Shown piece by piece: positions 86 to 16,368 of a stretch of 20,276 nucleotides of DNA (the first letter of the stretch is position 1; the number at the start of each line of letters is the position of its first letter). The stretch is from a virus. The DNA is taken from UHGV virus genome UHGV-1757948. The stretch is one strand, 5' to 3'. The translations under genes and the position numbers were made by a program. The notes beneath the pieces are model-generated. The model was not told the origin of the DNA and ran no database searches. It worked only from the letters and a program-made list of their open reading frames with translations.

Positions 86-3000
86 GTGGATTTAACAGAC
101 ACCCTGACCGTGTCTCAATCCTCATTCAGAGCACAGCTCGATTCCATAAAAACAGAGATACTTACATCCCTGACTTATGGCATGCGTGGTGACATTTTAG
201 CACAATGCGCGAAGTATTTTCTGCGGAAAGACAGTCCGGACACAGCCTTGGATATTATAACATTCCTCAAAGGGCTGCTTGTGGGAGACGGAGACTACGG
301 CATAGATGCGGACGGTACCGCACGGCTGAAGAAACTTCTTGCCGACGAAGCCACAATGAAAACGCTGACCGTGACAGGAAGGGCACATTTCTTCGAGCTT
401 GTCATAGATGAGCTGAACAGCGTCGGAGGTCAACTGATACTGTCCGCTGCTAACTGCACGGTACGCTCTGTCGAAAGAATAAGCGGAGCATGGCGTCTGT
501 GGTGGCTGGCGGAGGACAGCGACGGCAGAGCCGTGCAGAACATGTGGAAGGTCGGAGACCAGGCTCTGGCAATGACATCCAATCTTGCCGAGGGGACATC
601 ATATGATGCAGGAAACAGACTATGGTGGAGACTTGTCACGGCAACAGGGAGCGGAACACGGAACATTGACGGTGAGGACAGAAAGTGCCATTGGATTGAA
701 GTGTCTGAAGCCACGTGCGCGGCTGACAGCCTTGAGCCTGCAGAGGGTGACAGCGTTTGTCTGTGCGGACACCGTGGTGACGACACAGCGCGCAGCCATG
801 CGATAATAATAGCCGCCCACTCCACTCCGGATACCGAGCTGGAGAGTCCGTCATTCGCGCAATACAACGGAATCACAAGTTTTTCTCTAAGCCAGTACCG
901 CACGACATGGTTCGCGGCTAACGGCAATAAGATAAGAGGCGAGCTGGATGTGGACACTTCCGGTCTTGTCAGCTACACGCACCTTGCATGGGGAAACGGT
1001 CCGGACGACTGGACAAAGGACAAATCCCAGAGCACGGCAAAAGACTGGCTCATGCTCGGCATATGCACAGACCGCACGGAGAGCGACGTGGCTCTCGTCT
1101 ACAGCGACTATGCATGGTCAAGGATTAAAGGTACTGACGGAAAGACCACATACTTCCATGTGAAATATTCTTCAAACGAGAACGGAAATCCCATGACAGA
1201 GACGCCCAACCTCTACATCGGCACATACGTTGACTTCACTGAGGCAGACAGCAACGACCCCTCGGACTACACGTGGTCACGCTTCCAAGGATATGACGGG
1301 GAGCAGGGGATACCGGGGAAAAACGGTACGGACGGAAAGACAAGCTACCTTCACATCAAATATTCCGACGACGGGGGAAAGACGTTCACCGCCAGCAACG
1401 GTGAGACACCGGGTGCGTGGCTCGGGCAATGCGTAGACTTCAACTCATATGACCCGACAAGCGTTACCTCATATAAGTGGACACGGATACGCGGTGAGGA
1501 CGGAGCGGACGGAAGTGACGGTGAACCCGGCACGGACGGGCAGGACGGATTCTCGTGGGCACTTGACCCTGCCGCCATAACATTGGAGGCTGACAGTGAC
1601 GGTGTGGTGAGCATGCAGGATGCGACATCACGTCTGCGCGCATGGCTCGGCACGCGCGAGATGACTGTCACCATTACCGCCATAGAGCCAGTGCACTGTC
1701 TTGCGTCACGCAACGGGGCGCAGGTTACAATAACCGCAATAGGGACATATACGGCAGACTGGGGAGGTTCGGTGCCGTACGGAGCGGGATGGGTGCAGAT
1801 TACGGCACAGGCAACACTGGGAGGAGAGACCCGCAGTGTGAGCTGCCGCCTGTCCTTCACTGTATCGTCCATGGCACTCTCATCGCAGATTAAGGCTGAG
1901 ACGGACAGCATAAGCCTTAAAGTCGGCTATCTTGGGGCAAAGGACGGAAACATGGTGACCACTCCTGACATATTCCTGACAGGGAACGGGAACAAGACAT
2001 ACACAATCGGGGACATGTCAAGCCTGCGCGGAAAGACAATAACGGTATCATGCCTTGTCAAGACCGTATCCGCGGTTCCGGCGGCATCTGGCAACAGACG
2101 TATCGGCATGGAGCCCATGGTACGGTATGCCGACGGCAGCACGCAGTATCTCGGAACATGGAGGCAGATAACATCCACGGACACGTTCGAGGGACGCATA
2201 AGCTCCACACACAGGATACAGGATAAGGCTGTGGCGTCGGTAGAACAGTGTAACCTGTATATACAGGGCATATCATCAGGATACTCGTCCGTATCGCGTC
2301 CAAAGATAGAGACAGGTGCGGACGCGACAGACTGGGGACTCAGCGCGGAGGACAGGCTTAAAAGACCGAATCTTCTTCCAGGAACATCGGACTTCAGCCA
2401 ATGCACCGTACAGGATACCGTAGAGGCAGGAGCATACACGACACCTTACGGAGAAAAAATAAGCGTGGCACACGGTGTGAACGAAGCCGGGACATCATAC
2501 AAGGACGTCATCACATGGCGCAACGTGGTGCCCGAGCCGGGCGTACAGTATACGCTCTCATTCTGGGCGCGCGGCACAGGCAGCATCGGCTCGTACTTCT
2601 ATCCGAACTGCACCGACTGGGTCACAAGTCCGGGGACGAAGAACCAGACAGGTGTGACAGACGGATTCGTACAGTTCACGCTTGAAAGCGGATGGAACCG
2701 CTACCAGGTGACATGGAGCACACGCAACGATGTAAGCGGAGCGAAAAGTCTCATAGCGGCACGGCTCATGCCGGACAGTTCTGCACAGGGAGAGATCTGG
2801 ATATGCGGAGTGAAGCTGGAGAAAGGCAGCGAGGCGACAGACTGGCGTTCGGAGACAATCACGCACGACGAGCTGCAGGCGACAGGAATAGACATTGAGC
2901 ACAAGCGCATAAAGGTCACTGCCGACAACTTCGAGATACAGAACAACTCAGGCGAGACTGTCACCACTGTCGACGAGGCGGGCACCCTTACAGGTGTGAT

Positions 3001-9354: not shown

Positions 9355-10410
9355 ATGAAATGTGAGCAGCTAACATTCGCAAGGGAATACAGGGGATTTA
9401 CGCAAACCGCACTCGCGGCAAAAGTCAAAGGGCTATCGCAATCCAACCTGTCAAAATATGAAAAGGGGTTTGGCGGGCTGTCAGACAACATGCTTAGTTT
9501 GATTATGTCCACGCTTGATTTTCCGATGAAATTCCTTGACATGAATATTGTGAACAAGGTTGACAGCAAGCATTACAGGAAAAAGGCAACCATAACCGTA
9601 AAGACACGCAACGAGATAGACAGGACAATATCCCTGATTGCGTATTGTTTTGATTGGCTTAGTGAATTTGTCGAGATACCTGACTATTCATTTGGATACT
9701 ACGACATGGACAACGGCATAAGCCCGGAGGAACTTGCCGGGCACATAAGGAACAAATACAGGCTCGGCATGTCGCCTATATCCGATATTTGCAATTTCCT
9801 TGAGCGCAATGGGGTATTCATTTACATGTGGGACAGTCCTAACGACGAGTTTGACGGGGTATCCCTGATAACTGACGCAGGCAATCATCTTATCATTGTG
9901 AACAGGAACAGAAGCAACGACAGGGTAAGGTTTACGCTTGCACATGAGCTGGGACACATACTGATGCACGAGTGCCCAAGTTTCCCGGTATTCAGCATTA
10001 GAGACAAGGAGAAAGAGGCGAACGCTTTTGCATCAGAGTTCCTTCTCCCCTCCCAGGCTGTCAGAAACGCCTTGCACAATGTCAGGCTCGGACAGTTCCC
10101 TGAGCTGAAACGGTATTGGCTTGTTTCCATGGCATCACTTTTGGAAAAGGCAAAAAACATAAACGCCATTGCAAGTGAGAAGTACAAGTCTATGAGAATG
10201 GAGTTCAGCAGACGCCATTGGAATAAGAAAGAACCTTACGAAGTGCCTATTGACAGCCCTACCGTCTTTGAGCAGGCATATAGGCTGGTATCGGACACAT
10301 TGGGGTATTCAATCAGCATGATTTCGGAAAGCACAGGCTTGCCCGAGGATGTCTTGATAAAGATATTCGGCAAATCTGCGAGGATAATATCATTAAAGCC
10401 ACTAATATAA
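9355..10410 (+). CDS. XRE-family HTH domain fused to an ImmA/IrrE (M78) zinc metallopeptidase domain
   Basis: N-terminal HTH (FTQTALAAKVKGLSQSNLSKYEKG) and central HEXXH motif within FTLAHELGHILMHE, typical of COG2856/Peptidase_M78; 351 aa. Confidence 0.85.
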   Translation: MKCEQLTFAREYRGFTQTALAAKVKGLSQSNLSKYEKGFGGLSDNMLSLIMSTLDFPMKFLDMNIVNKVDSKHYRKKATITVKTRNEIDRTISLIAYCFDWLSEFVEIPDYSFGYYDMDNGISPEELAGHIRNKYRLGMSPISDICNFLERNGVFIYMWDSPNDEFDGVSLITDAGNHLIIVNRNRSNDRVRFTLAHELGHILMHECPSFPVFSIRDKEKEANAFASEFLLPSQAVRNALHNVRLGQFPELKRYWLVSMASLLEKAKNINAIASEKYKSMRMEFSRRHWNKKEPYEVPIDSPTVFEQAYRLVSDTLGYSISMISESTGLPEDVLIKIFGKSARIISLKPLI

Positions 10411-10492: not shown

Positions 10493-11002
10493 ATGGGAAG
10501 ATTTAAAGGATTGCTTGTGGTAGTATCGGTGTTGTTGACCGCATCATTATGCGTCAACATACTCCAGTGCAGTAATGCCGGAAAGAAAACAACGAATCAG
10601 GACACAGTACGGACTACATATATAGACACCATTCCGTTCTTGAATCCTGTACCCAAAGACAGTACGGTGATACGGTATGTTACGGAGACGTTGCCCGTGA
10701 CTTGCCGCAAAGACACGATATACGAAGAGAAGGGCGGGAATACAGGCGACAGCGTCAAGGTGACACTGCCTATAACTTCCAAAGTCTATAAGGACAGTAC
10801 CTATACCGCATACGTGAGCGGATTCCGCGCGAATCTTGACAGTATATTTGTATATCCGAGACACGAGACTGTAACTGTCACAAGGTACAAGGAAAGTCCG
10901 CGCCTTGGCGTCGGTATTGCCGCAGGTTACGGTATAGGGAAAGACATGAAACCGACACCTTTCATAGGAATATCCGTATATTATAGGCTTTGGCAGTGGT
11001 AG
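10493..11002 (+). CDS. Secreted or membrane-anchored hypothetical protein (169 aa)
   Basis: N-terminal hydrophobic signal-like segment LLVVVSVLLTASLCVNILQC and an aromatic C-terminus (YYRLWQW). Preferred over the Arg/Cys-rich antisense ORF 10547-11137. Confidence 0.45.
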   Translation: MGRFKGLLVVVSVLLTASLCVNILQCSNAGKKTTNQDTVRTTYIDTIPFLNPVPKDSTVIRYVTETLPVTCRKDTIYEEKGGNTGDSVKVTLPITSKVYKDSTYTAYVSGFRANLDSIFVYPRHETVTVTRYKESPRLGVGIAAGYGIGKDMKPTPFIGISVYYRLWQW

Positions 11003-12187: not shown

Positions 12188-12934
12188 TCACTGCGACGCG
12201 CACTCGCTTTCAAGCTCGTTCCAATCCTCGTCGGTAATGTATTTGCGGCATTCAGGATTAAGCTTCAACGCCTCATAGCCGACACGGTTGAGGAAACGCT
12301 CGCTCGTCAGCTTCTTCTCTATGATACGGAAGGCGAGCATGGCGTTGGCGTCCTTGTTCAGGTCTATGGTTATCCCGTCCTCGGTCTTGCATATCATGTC
12401 CGCAGCCTGCTCAAAATGGTAGAGGGTGCGTGACAGCCGCGCAGGATTCATGTATTTGTCAAAATGAATGCCGGGCGCGGCTTCGTCAGCCGTCTTTATC
12501 TGCACATCGTAAAGATGTACCGCGTATGCCAGAAGATTGCGGGCGGTCTCGACATAGGACTTAAGCTCCGTTTCGGTCTGCCTGTACTTGTCGAGCAGCG
12601 ACTTTATGGAGAAGCGCAGGATGTCGACATGCGGCTGTATGTCCTCCTCCACTGTGTCAAGATAGTCATAGAAGAGCTGCGTGCGGTCTCCGAAGTTCTG
12701 GATGTGAAGCTTCTCGTAGGCGTAGTACGCCCTCTCCGCTTCCCTGATGTGACGCTTCAGAGTGAAACGGTAGTACGGTGTCTTCCGTACTCTCTCTATG
12801 GCGTCGAACATTGTCTTGCCCGCCACTGTGTTGGCGGCTCCTATAACAAGGTTGACGAGTGAGTTGAGACGCTCGAACACCTCCATCGCGCGCTGGCTGC
12901 TCACTGCCGTAGCCTGTCGTACGTATGCTGTCAT
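12188..12934 (-). CDS. Hypothetical protein (248 aa), GC-rich
   Basis: Long ORF with plausible composition, no recognisable motif; stop/start overlap with the upstream gene at 12931-12934. Confidence 0.5.
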   Translation of the reverse strand: MTAYVRQATAVSSQRAMEVFERLNSLVNLVIGAANTVAGKTMFDAIERVRKTPYYRFTLKRHIREAERAYYAYEKLHIQNFGDRTQLFYDYLDTVEEDIQPHVDILRFSIKSLLDKYRQTETELKSYVETARNLLAYAVHLYDVQIKTADEAAPGIHFDKYMNPARLSRTLYHFEQAADMICKTEDGITIDLNKDANAMLAFRIIEKKLTSERFLNRVGYEALKLNPECRKYITDEDWNELESECASQ

Positions 12935-13191
12935 TGCTGACCTCCTTTCTTCAAATCATTCAAAGCCTTGTCATTGCAGCTTTTACAAAACAATTTATTG
13001 AGAGTTCCTTTTAGCATGACTAAATAGACATCATCGTCATCCTTGAACTTGCGGTTGCAATTAAAACAAAGCCTTTGAACATAAAGCCCTATACTTTCTC
13101 TCGACTTGCGGAACTGCCAGAATTTCAAGAATGGCTTATCAACAGCGTTTAGTACCTCGTATTCACGTTTGGTGATTTTCACTACTTTCAT
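12931..13191 (-). CDS. Small zinc-ribbon-like protein (86 aa)
   Basis: Two CxxC pairs (CFNC ... CKSC); ATGA overlap with the YopX gene. Confidence 0.45.
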   Translation of the reverse strand: MKVVKITKREYEVLNAVDKPFLKFWQFRKSRESIGLYVQRLCFNCNRKFKDDDDVYLVMLKGTLNKLFCKSCNDKALNDLKKGGQQ

Positions 13192-13562
13192 TTTATACCT
13201 CCTTTCAGTAGCTCTGGGTTGTCGTGGATGTTGCCGATTATCGTTGCTTTATCGGTAGGAAGGAAGCCTAATCTTTCAATACCTCCGATAAAAGAGCATT
13301 CAGAATCACTATATTCCACATCCACAATATCTCCGTCTGGAAATTGAATAATATCCCCTTCGTAAATCTCCTTCCCCTTTTTATCATACAAGCCTGTGAA
13401 CTGGCTTACGGTGGAGGGGGCGATTTCTCGTTTCCACACGGCATTAGAGCTGTCGCTCTTTTCGAGAATGTTGCAGTCTCCGTCCGCCCATATTAAAAGC
13501 GAACCATAGCACCACTCATCGTTTGCAAGGCGTTTGCCTCTGAACTTGATTGCTCGTTTCAT
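13188..13562 (-). CDS. YopX-family phage protein
   Basis: MKRAIKFRGKRL N-terminus, TGLYDKKGKEIYEGDII and C-terminal IIGNIHDNPELL are hallmark YopX motifs. Confidence 0.85.
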   Translation of the reverse strand: MKRAIKFRGKRLANDEWCYGSLLIWADGDCNILEKSDSSNAVWKREIAPSTVSQFTGLYDKKGKEIYEGDIIQFPDGDIVDVEYSDSECSFIGGIERLGFLPTDKATIIGNIHDNPELLKGGIK

Positions 13563-13870
13563 GACCGCACCTCCTTTCCGTCGGACAGAAGGTCGTCAAG
13601 ATAGGCGAACTTGTCAACCTCTCCCCATAATCGTTCAAACGACAGGTCGCGCAGGTCTTTGTAGACAGCGGCATTCCCGTTCTTGAATAAGACGAGTGTC
13701 TTGCGCTTAGGTTGGCAAGATACAGTGCCGTTGTGCCACACGGCGTTGATGCGCCAGTTGGCACCATCTATAAACCCATGTTCATAATACGGCACGTATT
13801 TTGGATTGAAGATGCTGTTGTCAATAACACAACTTTCTGTTGCCGCCTTTTCAATCTGTTCTCTTGTCAT
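13559..13870 (-). CDS. Hypothetical protein (103 aa)
   Basis: ORF with plausible composition; ATGA overlap with the YopX gene start. Confidence 0.45.
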   Translation of the reverse strand: MTREQIEKAATESCVIDNSIFNPKYVPYYEHGFIDGANWRINAVWHNGTVSCQPKRKTLVLFKNGNAAVYKDLRDLSFERLWGEVDKFAYLDDLLSDGKEVRS

Positions 13871-13903: not shown

Positions 13904-14068
13904 TTATCTTGTGATTTTAGAGGAAATTTTCCTTGTATTTCCTTTGTTTTCCTTTGCCAAACACTCATTGCCACATCTTCTGCCCACGTCGTACTTATCG
14001 CACCATCCGTCTCCGTAGAAGCCTTCGTTAATGAAGTGGATACATGAGCCGCAGTGTCTTGCTTTCAT
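13904..14068 (-). CDS. Cys-rich micro-protein (54 aa), translationally coupled downstream of the PP-loop ATPase
   Basis: Hand translation MKARHCGSCIHFINEGFYGDGWCDKYDVGRRCGNECLAKENKGNTRKISSKITR; ATG overlaps the upstream TGA (ATGA at 14065-14068). Not in the ORF track (under 60 aa). Confidence 0.35.
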   Translation of the reverse strand: MKARHCGSCIHFINEGFYGDGWCDKYDVGRRCGNECLAKENKGNTRKISSKITR

Positions 14069-14982
14069 TTTTCGTCGTCTTTAAATTCAAATTTCTGTTG
14101 CAGGAACTCGTCAGCGTAGAACTGCTTGTAGCTCTTGTCGCTTATCCACCACCTAAAGCCTGTTTCAGCGTCGTTGAAATTGTGGTCGATATATCCGTTG
14201 TCTATCAGCCATTGGATTGTCTTTATCCAATTGCGTTTGACGTGCGGCCAGCGTTTAGCATCTTCCTTCTTTATCCGTGCGTTCGACATAGGGCAACAGA
14301 TGCAGCCAATGCGTGTATAACCCTCGTCGTAGAGTTCGCAGTGTGGTATGCCGTTCATGTTAAGGAACTCCCACACGTCGCGCTCCGTCCAATAGATTAT
14401 GGGCGATACAAGGATTTTGTCCTTACCGCCGACACACGCAACCATGCTCTCCTCATGTTCGCTCCATTGGTCAAAGGTTTCCTCATTGCGCTTGCCCTTT
14501 ATCTCTGTGGATATTTCCTCACGTTTTGCACGCCGTGCGCTTTCTTCTTTTCTCACACCGATAAGTGTCACCTTGCCAACGCCTGACGTTTCCTTGAACT
14601 CGGCACAACACCAACGCAAAGTCCTTGTCGGCAAGATGTGCTTTTTCTTCGCCATTTCGTAAATGCTCATCCGTGGTTTGATTAGCTCCACATCGGGGTA
14701 TTGCGTCTTGACGAAGCGGATGACTTCGGGCGGGTCTATGCTCGTAAGGTTCATGTGAGCCTTGAAGCGGACACCGGCCAGCTTTGCGACATGGTAGAGG
14801 CATTGGCTGTCCTTGCCGCCACTGAACGCAAGGTAAAAGCCGTTTTCGGGGTCGAGGCGCAACGCCATTTTCTCCGACTTCCGCAAAAGTTCGACGGAGT
14901 GTTCCAGCTTCCTTGCAAGCGGACGGCTTACCTTTGACATTACGGTGTCGTGGTCAAGCAGTATTATTTCACACGCTTTCAT
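14065..14982 (-). CDS. PP-loop ATP pyrophosphatase of the PAPS-reductase / DndC-like family
   Basis: PP-loop motif in LAFSGGKDSQCLYHV plus Cys clusters (WCCAEF, GCICCPMS) compatible with Fe-S or zinc binding; 305 aa. Confidence 0.8.
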   Translation of the reverse strand: MKACEIILLDHDTVMSKVSRPLARKLEHSVELLRKSEKMALRLDPENGFYLAFSGGKDSQCLYHVAKLAGVRFKAHMNLTSIDPPEVIRFVKTQYPDVELIKPRMSIYEMAKKKHILPTRTLRWCCAEFKETSGVGKVTLIGVRKEESARRAKREEISTEIKGKRNEETFDQWSEHEESMVACVGGKDKILVSPIIYWTERDVWEFLNMNGIPHCELYDEGYTRIGCICCPMSNARIKKEDAKRWPHVKRNWIKTIQWLIDNGYIDHNFNDAETGFRWWISDKSYKQFYADEFLQQKFEFKDDEK

Positions 14983-15113: not shown

Positions 15114-15260
15114 CTAATCGTCTACAATGGCTTTTGCTAAACCGAAGAGAAGGATATATATTCCTAACATGAGCAGTACCCATGGGAAACTTGTCAACAT
15201 CCATATAGAGGCTGCCACGCAAAGTGCACCGGCATGGATGATTAGTTCAGTTCTGTTCAT
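15114..15260 (-). CDS. Micro-membrane protein (48 aa) coupled to the radical-SAM gene
   Basis: Hand translation MNRTELIIHAGALCVAASIWMLTSFPWVLLMLGIYILLFGLAKAIVDD; ATG overlaps the radical-SAM stop (ATGA at 15257-15260). Confidence 0.35.
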   Translation of the reverse strand: MNRTELIIHAGALCVAASIWMLTSFPWVLLMLGIYILLFGLAKAIVDD

Positions 15261-16162
15261 TGCTTCATATTTTTAAGTTTGTAACTATTCTCATTAAGCC
15301 ACTTTTGGAAATACCATAACTGACCGCATCCGCCACCTATATCGTCTTGCCCTGCCGGGTTAAATACTCTCGTATTAAAACCTACGTCATTCATCTTTGA
15401 ATTAAAGTCACGGATTAAGTCAAGTTGTCGCTGTATTGATGAATGTACACTTTCATCCTTTTCGCAAATAACAGACAAAGTGACCTCCCATATATCAGGG
15501 TTAAATAATTCAGAGAGCCTCATAGCATCTTCCATATCATTATTCCCGACATGTACGCAATAATTAAAGAAAGGCTTTCTTCCGACATAAGAAGCCCAAA
15601 ACTCACCCGTAGAAGCTATTTGCCGAAGTGTTGACGTATTCGTTGCTATAAGTTTCTTCCTTTTTTCATCTGTACTTTCATGTACTGAAAATTGAAGACC
15701 TACTTTATCTATTTCTTTCGATAGTGCAATAAAATCAGACATGTATAAATACATCATGTGAGGGGCAGAAGTGCTTACAAGAAGTTGTGCGTTTGGATAT
15801 TTCACATGTAGACTTTCTATTGCAGGCTGCAATGCCGAGTAGTTGTAAAAAGGCTCTCCCATGCTCATAAACATAATTTGGAACTTTTTAATGTCATCAG
15901 TGCGGCAATCAATAGTAGATAATGCCCCATCAATCTGTTGTATTATTTCGTCAGTAGAAAGATTTCTGACAAAAAATTTGCCTGTTCCGCAGAAAGAACA
16001 TCCAACTGGACAACCGCTTTGAACCGAACAACATATAACTGTCCTTTTTTTGTATTCTCCATATCTATAAAGAACAGTTTCAGCAATAGCATTTGGCTTG
16101 TCCCACTCAAACACGAATTTCTTTACATTCGTATCACTTGATTCAAATACTTTTGTTTTCAT
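15257..16162 (-). CDS. RlmN/Cfr-family radical-SAM methyl synthase, N-terminally truncated
   Basis: VICCSVQSGCPVGCSFCGTG holds the CxxxCxxC radical-SAM cluster plus the upstream RlmN Cys118-equivalent; MFMSMGEPFYN matches the MGMGEP motif; LLVSTSA matches the STSG region; C-terminal GQDDIGGGCGQL matches the Cys355 region (DIDAACGQL) of E. coli RlmN. 301 aa, about 70 residues shorter at the N-terminus than RlmN; markedly AT-rich relative to neighbours. Confidence 0.85.
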   Translation of the reverse strand: MKTKVFESSDTNVKKFVFEWDKPNAIAETVLYRYGEYKKRTVICCSVQSGCPVGCSFCGTGKFFVRNLSTDEIIQQIDGALSTIDCRTDDIKKFQIMFMSMGEPFYNYSALQPAIESLHVKYPNAQLLVSTSAPHMMYLYMSDFIALSKEIDKVGLQFSVHESTDEKRKKLIATNTSTLRQIASTGEFWASYVGRKPFFNYCVHVGNNDMEDAMRLSELFNPDIWEVTLSVICEKDESVHSSIQRQLDLIRDFNSKMNDVGFNTRVFNPAGQDDIGGGCGQLWYFQKWLNENSYKLKNMKQ

Positions 16163-16368
16163 TTGCCGTATGTTTTTGTTTTCTTGGGTTTGTAACTATC
16201 GGTTTCTTCGTCCCACTCCACGCAGTCGGGGCAGTAGAGTTTGCCGTCGATTTCTTCCCAATCGCACATCTTCGCCATATACCTTGCCATACCTTCACTA
16301 AATTCATAGCCATGCTTACTTCCGCACCCGTCGCACACGGCTTGGTACATCGTCACTTTCTGTTTCAT
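16159..16368 (-). CDS. Small zinc-ribbon protein (69 aa)
   Basis: CDGC ... CPDC pairs; stop overlaps the radical-SAM start (ATGA at 16159-16162). Confidence 0.5.
   Translation of the reverse strand: MKQKVTMYQAVCDGCGSKHGYEFSEGMARYMAKMCDWEEIDGKLYCPDCVEWDEETDSYKPKKTKTYGK

Follow-up and report, generated by a model that had tools for sequence, protein, structure and literature searches.

The viral genome UHGV-1757948 raises the question of what a phage gains from a radical S-adenosylmethionine (SAM) enzyme that resembles the RNA methyltransferases RlmN and Cfr but lacks one of their domains, and of what such an enzyme methylates. The gene, hereafter rSAM, lies at positions 15257–16162 (minus strand) of the stretch analysed here, which is 20,276 nucleotides long and is referred to as the window; it is an open reading frame (ORF) of 301 codons with an ATG start. 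As detailed below, the fold, the cluster motif and the two mechanistic cysteines predicted for its product argue for an intact class-A radical-SAM methyl synthase core, and codon comparisons show that it is maintained by selection. By its sequence, this core appears to belong to a third branch of the class, beside RlmN and Cfr and an equivalog of neither: a large, conserved branch that keeps the methyl-synthase chemistry, has discarded the RNA-recognition domain and travels mainly on phages. What it methylates can be answered more tentatively, and the genes that surround its relatives provide the main clue.

The predicted protein retains a class-A methyl synthase core

In NCBIfam, the best match of the 301-residue protein is the RlmN model TIGR00048 (E = 5.9e-28, profile positions 73–342 of 355), while the Cfr models reach E-values of about 1e-19 to 1e-21. 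The only PDB sequences matched below 1e-8 are chains of RlmN (6fz6, 3rf9) and Cfr (9p0p), with a large gap after them, and Pfam returns the generic Radical_SAM domain alone, at 27.8 bits against a cutoff of 29.5 bits. Structure comparison gives the same ranking. An AlphaFold2 (AF2) model built from 41 family sequences (pLDDT 83.8, pTM 0.85) has as its nine best Foldseek matches in the PDB RlmN-type structures exclusively (E 3.6e-18 to 1.2e-13, template-modelling score about 0.7), and the next radical-SAM family follows at 2e-5, thirteen orders of magnitude behind RlmN. The RlmN-type core fold, i.e. a partial TIM barrel with a β-extension and a C-terminal segment, is present in the model, where residues 1–43 (16034–16162, minus strand, as are all the features of rSAM given here) form the β-sheet extension that precedes the radical-SAM core (AF2 strands 2–7, 13–21, 24–33 and 40–46).

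The catalytic residues follow in the expected order. Cys44 (16031–16033) is the equivalent of the resolving cysteine C118 of E. coli RlmN in both profile and MAFFT alignments. The CPVGCSFC segment (15989–16012) provides the CxxxCxxC motif for the [4Fe-4S]/SAM cluster, with C51, C55 and C58 aligned to RlmN C125, C129 and C132. MSMGEP (15851–15868) is the counterpart of the canonical MGMGEP, the SAM-binding 'GGE'-type motif, its S100 being specific to the family. The C-terminal motif FNPAGQDDIGGGCGQL (15317–15364) contains Cys279 (15326–15328), which the family-profile alignment to E. coli RlmN pairs with the methyl carrier C355, together with the family-specific residues F267, P269 and A270. 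The STS and SxH motifs and the arginine equivalent to R114 are likewise common to rSAM and RlmN. Among the representatives that we aligned, CxxxCxxC is kept in 30/30 members of the short family to which rSAM belongs and in 10/10 canonical-length proteins; C279 and C44 are invariant in the close family and found in 27 and 25, respectively, of the 30 wider representatives. An auxiliary Fe-S cluster held by C45, C86, C202 and C233 was also considered and rejected: these cysteines are invariant in the close family yet unconserved in the wider one.

The gene is under purifying selection and shows no decay. Comparison with an 82%-identical copy (L002) reveals 142 codons that differ by synonymous changes only and 55 with nonsynonymous differences; between more distant pairs, synonymous divergence (dS) is saturated and nonsynonymous divergence (dN) is 0.11–0.38. 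As a result of this saturation, Nei–Gojobori (NG86) dN/dS ratios were dropped in favour of raw codon counts.

The original prediction, made from the sequence of the window, had described rSAM as an N-terminally truncated member of the RlmN/Cfr family that lacks about 70 residues and has all its catalytic cysteines intact. Profile search and structure comparison both bear out the family, placing RlmN/Cfr first by a wide margin over any other radical-SAM family, and the five cysteines and MSMGEP do align to RlmN. Two parts of that description have to be reworded, however. Kinship with RlmN and Cfr holds but equivalence to either does not: rSAM scores 98 bits against the 290 required for RlmN, and residues that are invariant in the canonical enzymes are replaced. 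Similarly, 'truncated' is right for the length of the protein and wrong for the history of the gene, as a whole family, itself conserved, has the same short architecture.

A conserved family with a remodelled substrate side

The profile scores place rSAM well outside both known equivalogs: 97.8 bits on TIGR00048, below the RlmN equivalog threshold (curated cutoff 290), and 76.6 versus 530 bits and 69.8 versus 550 bits on the Cfr equivalog models NF000424 and TIGR04432, respectively. The alignments begin at position 73 of TIGR00048, residue 71 of Cfr and residue 111 or so of RlmN, so that the start of rSAM coincides with the end of the canonical helical N-terminal domain. About 64 residues are absent relative to Cfr and about 74 relative to E. 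coli RlmN, in agreement with the predicted 70. Counted ahead of CxxxCxxC, there are 50 residues in the phage protein and 42–63 in the short family versus 98–127 in canonical-length relatives.

This architecture is widespread. A search of 5.8 billion proteins retrieved 5,605 clusters at E ≤ 1e-5, the best 120 of which are all 292–319 residues long and at least 69% identical; an exhaustive scan through 1.84 billion representatives yielded 74 clusters at E ≤ 1e-30, the matches then grading into canonical-length RlmN/Cfr at about 100 bits. Orthologues of 47–68% identity occur on contigs binned as Bacteroidota, Firmicutes, Actinobacteria, Proteobacteria, Saccharibacteria, Planctomycetes, Methanobacterium and Woesearchaeota, and 232 viral contigs of IMG/VR, many of them 100–425 kb long, carry a family member. 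Copies of about 50% identity are present in the cultured phages Arash (Salmonella), ANB28 and BUCTxx99 (Stenotrophomonas), JGB6 (Xanthomonas) and Ahp1 (Aeromonas) and in several cultured Vibrio phages of 137 kb. The short architecture thus appears, from these sequences, to be a trait of an entire conserved family with thousands of members, mostly phage-borne, and not a deletion specific to one gene.

As the original prediction supposed, no characterised phage homologue was found in the literature searched, and the names in GenBank, IMG and BFVD are generic. The databases refer to family members as 'radical SAM protein', 'hypothetical protein', 'COG0820' or '23S rRNA (adenine2503-C2)-methyltransferase', the last label being applied without evidence, and PHROGs assigns rSAM to a family of unknown function. 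No PADLOC model matches rSAM, and membership in a known defence system was rejected on that ground.

To locate the differences from the canonical enzymes, we compared the active sites of 30 short-family and 10 canonical-length representatives with the corresponding segments of E. coli RlmN and Cfr. Residues invariant in the canonical proteins are exchanged in the short family at many positions: N172 for Q95, V174 for M97, a glycine for S100, an alanine for Q157, the β5 glutamate for N200, the β6 asparagine for T228, R344 for F267, T346 for P269 and K/R347 for A270. The Arg–Arg pair (R206/R207 in E. coli RlmN, R184/R185 in Cfr) is replaced by an alanine followed by a glutamine or glutamate, A125/Q126 in the phage protein. 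The substrate-side replacements (Q95, M97, A125/Q126, N200, T228, F267 and A270) are each conserved within the short family, and Q157, N200 and F267 are also common to the wider clade that lacks the N-terminal domain. In an AlphaFold3 model of the Cfr–rRNA complex, R184 is stacked against C2499 and U2500, and two lysines of the N-lobe, K27 and K35, touch the rRNA (bioRxiv 2025.09.18.677109); the N-terminal domain of Cfr has been proposed to bind RNA, and point mutants in it lowered activity (Kaminska et al., PMC2836569). The median isoelectric point (pI) of the short family, 6.2, is near neutral versus mostly 8–9 in canonical-length relatives, a difference that is merely suggestive as a discriminator. 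Altogether, the short family seems to have kept the chemistry of RlmN and Cfr and to have rebuilt their substrate recognition.

Note that RlmN-like cores without the N-terminal domain are, in rare cases, fused to nucleotide hydrolases: to a NUDIX domain in P0130 (L077, 2043–3449) and to an HD/HD_assoc domain of the dNTP-triphosphohydrolase type in P0204 (L078, 724–3003), which is followed by a DUF7768 gene. We considered these fusions as proof of a nucleotide substrate and rejected them as such: P0130 is a singleton at 90% clustering, P0219 has lost an intact [4Fe-4S] cluster motif, its version being degenerate, and P0204 belongs to a more distant branch.

Members of the family recur among NAD genes

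ORFs were called and clustered in 159 loci carrying the family, and the loci were de-replicated into 86 lineages according to the gene content that their flanks share; de-replication by rSAM identity was abandoned, as the family is so conserved that single linkage over-merged it. The most frequent neighbours are NAPRTase (17 of the 86 lineages), Nudix (13), isochorismatase/PncA (11), NadE (9) and NadD-like (7) proteins, followed by metallophosphoesterases and Prs-like proteins (6 each), all other families being present in four lineages at most, barring a spurious antisense ORF. Pfam backs the assignments related to nicotinamide adenine dinucleotide (NAD) and adds NADAR, ADP-ribosylglycohydrolase, NadA, CinA/PncC and NAD kinase to the list. 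The carriers near which the salvage and rebuilding families (NAPRTase/Nampt-family, PncA, NadD/NMNAT, NadE, Nudix/NrtR and Prs-like) recur are phages, prophages and some bacteria and archaea with reduced genomes. A core NAD gene lies within 8 kb of rSAM in 23 of the 86 lineages, and two or more such genes in 14. None was found in 85 unrelated phage loci (1.13 Mb; Fisher P = 2.5e-8), although these controls are small gut phages and were unmatched for genome size. Relative to the published whole-genome frequency of the NAD reconstitution pathways NARP1 and NARP2 together, 5.4% (bioRxiv 2024.02.11.579819 / PMC13464706), the rate observed near rSAM corresponds to binomial P values of 3e-6 to 1e-10.

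Several of these arrangements are tight. In the cultured actinobacterium Ornithinimicrobium murale (QLVD01000019.1; L254, 8113–11718), a translationally coupled operon has the order pncB–pncA–rSAM–nrtR, with 4-nt overlaps between successive genes. NrtR is an ADP-ribose-responsive repressor of NAD genes (PMC2330246), and the region, which has WhiB, dNMP kinase, GmrSD-like and IS21 genes around it, looks proviral; it probably represents a prophage or mobile element with an NAD-salvage operon regulated by ADP-ribose (ADPR). A metagenome-assembled genome of Bacilli (L051) has the series Nudix–PncA–PncB–rSAM–NadE–x–NadD–CinA–NadK, and a contig binned as Woesearchaeota (L054) has NAPRT–PncA–NadA–rSAM–ARH–GNAT–NadE–Nudix–Prs–NadD, where ARH stands for ADP-ribosylglycohydrolase. 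In a Saccharibacteria locus with chromosomal-looking flanks (L013; MetRS, FtsX, TatD), rSAM is divergently oriented within an NAD cluster. The cultured Vibrio phage 496E54-1 carries a run of Prs-like, NAPRTase-family and rSAM genes, and on a phage-like contig (L077) the rSAM–Nudix fusion is followed by NAPRTase and NMNAT. This embedding in NAD operons, including an NrtR operon and NARP gene pairs, ties the short family to the depletion and rebuilding of NAD in the conflict between phages and bacteria, a subject under very active study at present.

Some of these loci have additional features. The unnamed ORF of the Bacilli locus (L051, 10824–11525, plus strand), between NadE and NadD, encodes a second radical-SAM-like protein, of 233 residues, with no informative PDB match. 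In a gut jumbo-phage lineage (L083–L113; contigs of 94–183 kb, sample 3300045988), 3 nt separate the end of a calcineurin-like metallophosphoesterase gene from rSAM, and the surrounding 8 kb also hold a second metallophosphoesterase, a full PncA/NAPRT/NadD/NadE/Nudix set, PolA and a ThyX-like gene; NAD cleavage by a calcineurin domain has been described as a defence in a recent preprint. On one IMG/VR contig (L126), a full-length GOLLD RNA (894–1321, plus strand; Rfam RF02032, 211 bits) adjoins tRNA genes about 6.7 kb upstream of a Nudix–NAPRTase–rSAM–Prs cluster.

An operon under NrtR control that has no assigned function, nrtX–nrtY, has been listed for Streptomyces, Kineococcus, Frankia, Proteus mirabilis and Hahella (Rodionov et al. 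2008, PMC2330246, Table 1). It might include the short family or its isochorismatase neighbour; the named top matches contain no member from Streptomyces, Frankia, Kineococcus or Proteus. No radical-SAM component is mentioned in the NARP1/2, NARP3, aRES/Adpp and NrtR papers or in the survey of viral NAD–ADPr systems by Iyer et al., and we found no description of the association in the literature searched: the link between the short family and NAD salvage or reconstitution modules appears to be new.

Proposed function and competing explanations

Because the RNA-recognition apparatus is gone and the conserved partners are NAD biosynthetic or salvage enzymes and an ADPR sensor, not RNA-repair enzymes, we favour a non-canonical substrate linked to NAD or ADPR. 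Overall, we give a probability of roughly 45% to the proposal that rSAM has an RlmN/Cfr-type core, serves as an accessory enzyme of the virus–host conflict over NAD and ADPR, and C-methylates something beyond the canonical rRNA and tRNA sites. The leading candidate substrate would be the adenine ring of an NAD-, ADPR- or ATP-type nucleotide. RlmN and Cfr work by an established methyl-synthase mechanism that uses two cysteines, and we infer that rSAM retains it, since every required residue is conserved and under selection. One SAM molecule would methylate Cys279; a second would be cleaved at the [4Fe-4S] cluster (C51/C55/C58), yielding a 5'-deoxyadenosyl radical that would take a hydrogen from methyl-Cys279; the resulting methylene radical would then add to an sp2 carbon of an aromatic N-heterocycle of the adenine type, and Cys44 would resolve the covalent adduct. 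In the window phage, the enzyme would have to act on host-supplied metabolites, since there are no NAD genes nearby. A more specific version of this proposal, which we consider doubtful, is that the short family is the first class-A methyl synthase to act on a free nucleotide, methylating the adenine or pyridine ring of NAD+, ADPR or a derivative under the control of NrtR and ADPR, and that the modified species, made by phages and some reduced-genome microbes, escapes, jams or re-routes NAD-targeting immunity.

A number of observations weigh against a substrate linked to NAD. In 63 of the 86 lineages (73%), among them the window phage and its closest relatives, there is no NAD gene within 8 kb, and the enzyme therefore needs no NAD genes of the phage; around the window copy, none was found in the 20-kb window and a further 10 kb of the contig. 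The control loci, as mentioned above, are small gut phages unmatched for genome size, and the link could reflect a common location in 'counter-defence islands' instead of a common chemistry. The list of RNA-contacting residues lost from the short family is based on a preprint's AlphaFold3 model instead of a crystal structure, and the R114-equivalent arginine is retained in rSAM. The nucleotide-hydrolase fusions are rare and lend weak support at most. We know of only two activities among class-A radical-SAM methylases, those of RlmN and Cfr, both on RNA. Finally, RlmN-type enzymes are slow and a poor match to the bulk conversion of a millimolar metabolite pool, so that a low-abundance target would suit rSAM better than a bulk cofactor.

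The serious rival is therefore an RNA adenine C-methyltransferase, acting at C2 or C8 of tRNA A37, of 23S rRNA A2503 or of both, and tuning or protecting translation, which we regard as possible. Host or phage tRNAs might be modified against anticodon nucleases, or the ribosome might be modified, with RNA being recognised by the surface of the core or by a partner protein. RNA adenines are the targets of every characterised homologue, and rSAM keeps the two mechanistic cysteines along with the R114-equivalent arginine. There are also tRNA genes close to rSAM, a further point against an NAD-linked substrate: within 8 kb in 26 of the 86 lineages, and within 1.1 kb in 8 versus about 4 expected. 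They include genes for tRNA-Gln and tRNA-His, two isotypes that we take to be substrates of E. coli RlmN, and in Stenotrophomonas phage ANB28 (L161) rSAM sits inside a tRNA array. Six loci (L011, L015, L108, L141, L144 and L161) have tRNA genes for His, Arg, Gln, Thr and other isotypes at 60–800 nt from rSAM, a weak enrichment over the uniform expectation. The orthologue in Salmonella phage Arash (gp133c, labelled hypothetical; L160, 70245–85117) has two RNA ligases, a WYL-domain protein and a phosphoesterase in its vicinity, a setting that suggests RNA repair more than it does NAD salvage. Since viral tRNA repair is known to use NAD as a cofactor (PMC9503650), this role would even offer an indirect reason for the NAD link. 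However, the proposed RNA-binding domain is absent, the Arg–Arg pair, K/R347, R344, N172 and the β5 glutamate are all replaced, and the charge of the short family is near neutral where the canonical enzymes are basic. Moreover, the NAD-related genes near rSAM encode enzymes of biosynthesis or salvage and NrtR, not repair enzymes of the KptA/Tpt1 type, many of the adjacent tRNAs (Arg-UCU, Thr, Leu, Met) are not known to be RlmN substrates, and jumbo phages and the surroundings of prophage ends are rich in tRNA genes in any case.

The remaining explanations rank lower. That the NAD association is mere co-location in accessory or counter-defence islands, the target being unrelated (a host protein or another metabolite) or the enzyme serving an anti-defence role independent of NAD, seems unlikely. 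Anti-defence genes are known to cluster, NAD genes are missing from the vicinity in those 63 of 86 lineages, and the window copy sits in a mosaic hotspot of cassette exchange; yet the link holds in the chromosomal-looking Saccharibacteria locus and in tight operons with 4-nt overlaps and NrtR, it involves three different NAD routes (Preiss–Handler, a Prs plus NAPRTase pair, and NAPRTase plus NMNAT), and, NAD genes and the metallophosphoesterase (6/86) apart, no real family recurs in more than four lineages. Very unlikely, in our opinion, is an anti-restriction modification of phage DNA by adenine C-methylation. The gene does belong to an early/replication module that includes a PAPS-reductase/BrxP-like gene in the window and, in a related locus (L248), a C5 DNA methylase upstream, and N6/N4 methylases lie within a few kb in several related loci, but no DNA-modification gene is a conserved partner and rSAM has no DNA-binding domain. 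In addition, a slow, stoichiometric radical enzyme is ill-suited to genome-wide modification, and C2- or C8-methyl adenine would disturb base pairing or the anti conformation. It is scarcely credible, finally, that rSAM is what remains of a bacterial rlmN gene that was captured and is now decaying or without function. A whole canonical domain is absent and the scores fall far below the family cutoffs, as such a remnant would have it, but thousands of members share the same length, the catalytic residues do not vary, the gene is under strong purifying selection and its fold is predicted with confidence.

The distinction between the two leading explanations has consequences. A nucleotide substrate of the NAD/ADPR type would mean a new enzymology and a new layer of counter-defence, whereas a tRNA or rRNA substrate would make the family a widespread phage tool for reprogramming translation.

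rSAM is a mobile cassette in the early operon of the window phage

The original prediction that the gene is phage-borne agrees with its surroundings and with its identity (100%) to the copy on the 42.9-kb IMG/VR contig UViG_3300045988_136180; the window corresponds to ENA contig ERZ1310104 NODE_1063. The plus strand of the window encodes a 1,230-residue tail fibre, an endolysin and a regulator with HTH and Peptidase_M78 domains (ImmA/IrrE-type), after which comes a minus-strand module of the early type that includes MazG-like, YopX, PAPS-reductase and DUF7666 genes. On sister contigs, VRR-NUC, a C5 DNA methylase and DUF3127/DUF4494 are encoded in addition; the two latter domains are typical of Bacteroidota. 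At the DNA level, the window has essentially no similarity to GenBank phages. At the Rfam gathering threshold, neither the window nor any of eight key loci yielded an NAD riboswitch or other RNA element near the gene.

Within the module, rSAM is part of a packed, translationally coupled operon in which no terminator-like site was found. Upstream, a 69-residue zinc-ribbon-like ORF of the CxxC...CxxC type (16159–16368, minus strand) has its stop overlapping the rSAM start by 4 nt; downstream, a 48-residue hydrophobic, membrane-type ORF (15114–15260, minus strand) overlaps the rSAM stop by 4 nt and is followed by a 42-residue ORF and by the PAPS-reductase-family, BrxP-like gene (14065–14982, minus strand; Pfam PAPS_reduct, phrog_424, PADLOC BrxP 2e-16). 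The zinc-ribbon ORF is also directly upstream of rSAM in L002 (75% identical) and present without rSAM in another relative, L169. The 48-residue ORF adjoins rSAM in all six of the contigs shown with an identical protein, and a 41%-identical version occurs in relatives without rSAM. The PAPS-reductase gene has other genes in its place in L253 and is absent from L168. These three genes were considered as obligate partners and rejected, since each of them is found without rSAM or rSAM without it.

rSAM has a GC content of 0.366 and a third-position GC content (GC3) of 0.311, the lowest of the 25 genes of the window (mean 0.458, standard deviation 0.049, z = −1.9), as anticipated by the original prediction, which had noted its AT-richness and suggested recent acquisition. 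Elsewhere, the GC content of family members follows the local one, from 0.35 to 0.64. In L169, whose flanking proteins are 78–99% identical to those of the window (98% for the zinc-ribbon ORF), the exact rSAM slot between the zinc-ribbon and membrane ORFs is occupied by four small ORFs of 49, 61, 62 and 101 residues (12972–13808), and two extra genes (190 and 96 residues) stand between the 42-residue ORF and the PAPS-reductase gene. In L168, the entire rSAM block is absent. Conversely, five contigs from different samples have nucleotide-identical rSAM genes even where their flanks differ. Because of this low GC and GC3, of the differences in slot content and of the identity of the gene in differing flanks, we conclude that rSAM is, in the window phage, a stand-alone low-GC cassette that recently moved into a mosaic cassette-exchange hotspot of the early operon; the suggestion of recent acquisition is thus upheld, the low GC3 and the four ORFs of L169 being its chief support.

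Three further observations concern the window itself. The PAPS-reductase protein contains RWCC and CICCP motifs and matches part of BrxP (BREX type 4); its gene is present, replaced or absent among near-identical phages. The regulator (9355–10410, plus strand) and a DUF6808 protein (10493–11002, plus strand) are 100% identical in L168, where the neighbouring early genes are 50–95% identical or absent, and mosaicism is thus strong around a conserved regulatory core (HTH plus Peptidase_M78, DUF6808). A 248-residue ORF with no family match (12188–12934, minus strand) has a GC content that is unusually high for the window (0.539; GC3 0.71) and is 97–99% identical in related phages.

Comparison with known systems

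The best match of rSAM in both sequence and fold is RlmN (TIGR00048; PDB 3RF9, 3RFA, 5HR7), the dual C2-methyl synthase of 23S rRNA A2503 and tRNA A37, with which it shares the partial TIM-barrel core with its N-terminal β-extension, the CxxxCxxC motif, the equivalents of C118 and C355, and the GGE-type, STS and SxH motifs. It differs from RlmN in the absence of the helical N-terminal domain, its sub-cutoff score, the replaced substrate-side residues and its near-neutral charge, and whereas RlmN is the product of a housekeeping gene, the short family has phages and mobile elements as its carriers and shows a link to genes of NAD salvage.

Cfr (NF000424, TIGR04432; PDB 9P0P), the C8-methyltransferase of 23S rRNA A2503 that makes cells resistant against phenicols, lincosamides, oxazolidinones, pleuromutilins and streptogramin A (PhLOPSA), is a clinically important resistance determinant built on the same class-A scaffold. 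rSAM can be aligned to it over Cfr residues 71–342, with C105, C112, C116, C119 and C338 matched, and the gene is mobile, like that of Cfr. Unlike Cfr, rSAM has no N-terminal lobe with residues such as K27 and K35, and the positions of R184/R185 and of the Cfr-specific residues S151, S153, Q329 and F330 hold other residues, which are invariant in the short family. The sequence gives no indication of Cfr-like antibiotic resistance, which we do not favour.

As for NAD metabolism, the short family is repeatedly found in or beside NARP1 (Adps and Namat), NARP2 (Nampt and Nmnat), Preiss–Handler (PncA, PncB, NadD, NadE) and NrtR-controlled modules. The Prs-like and NAPRTase-family neighbours are candidate counterparts of Adps and Namat. 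The NARP modules are described as counter-measures to NAD-depleting immunity (bioRxiv 2024.02.11.579819, PMC13464706); NAD reconstitution as described requires no methylation step.

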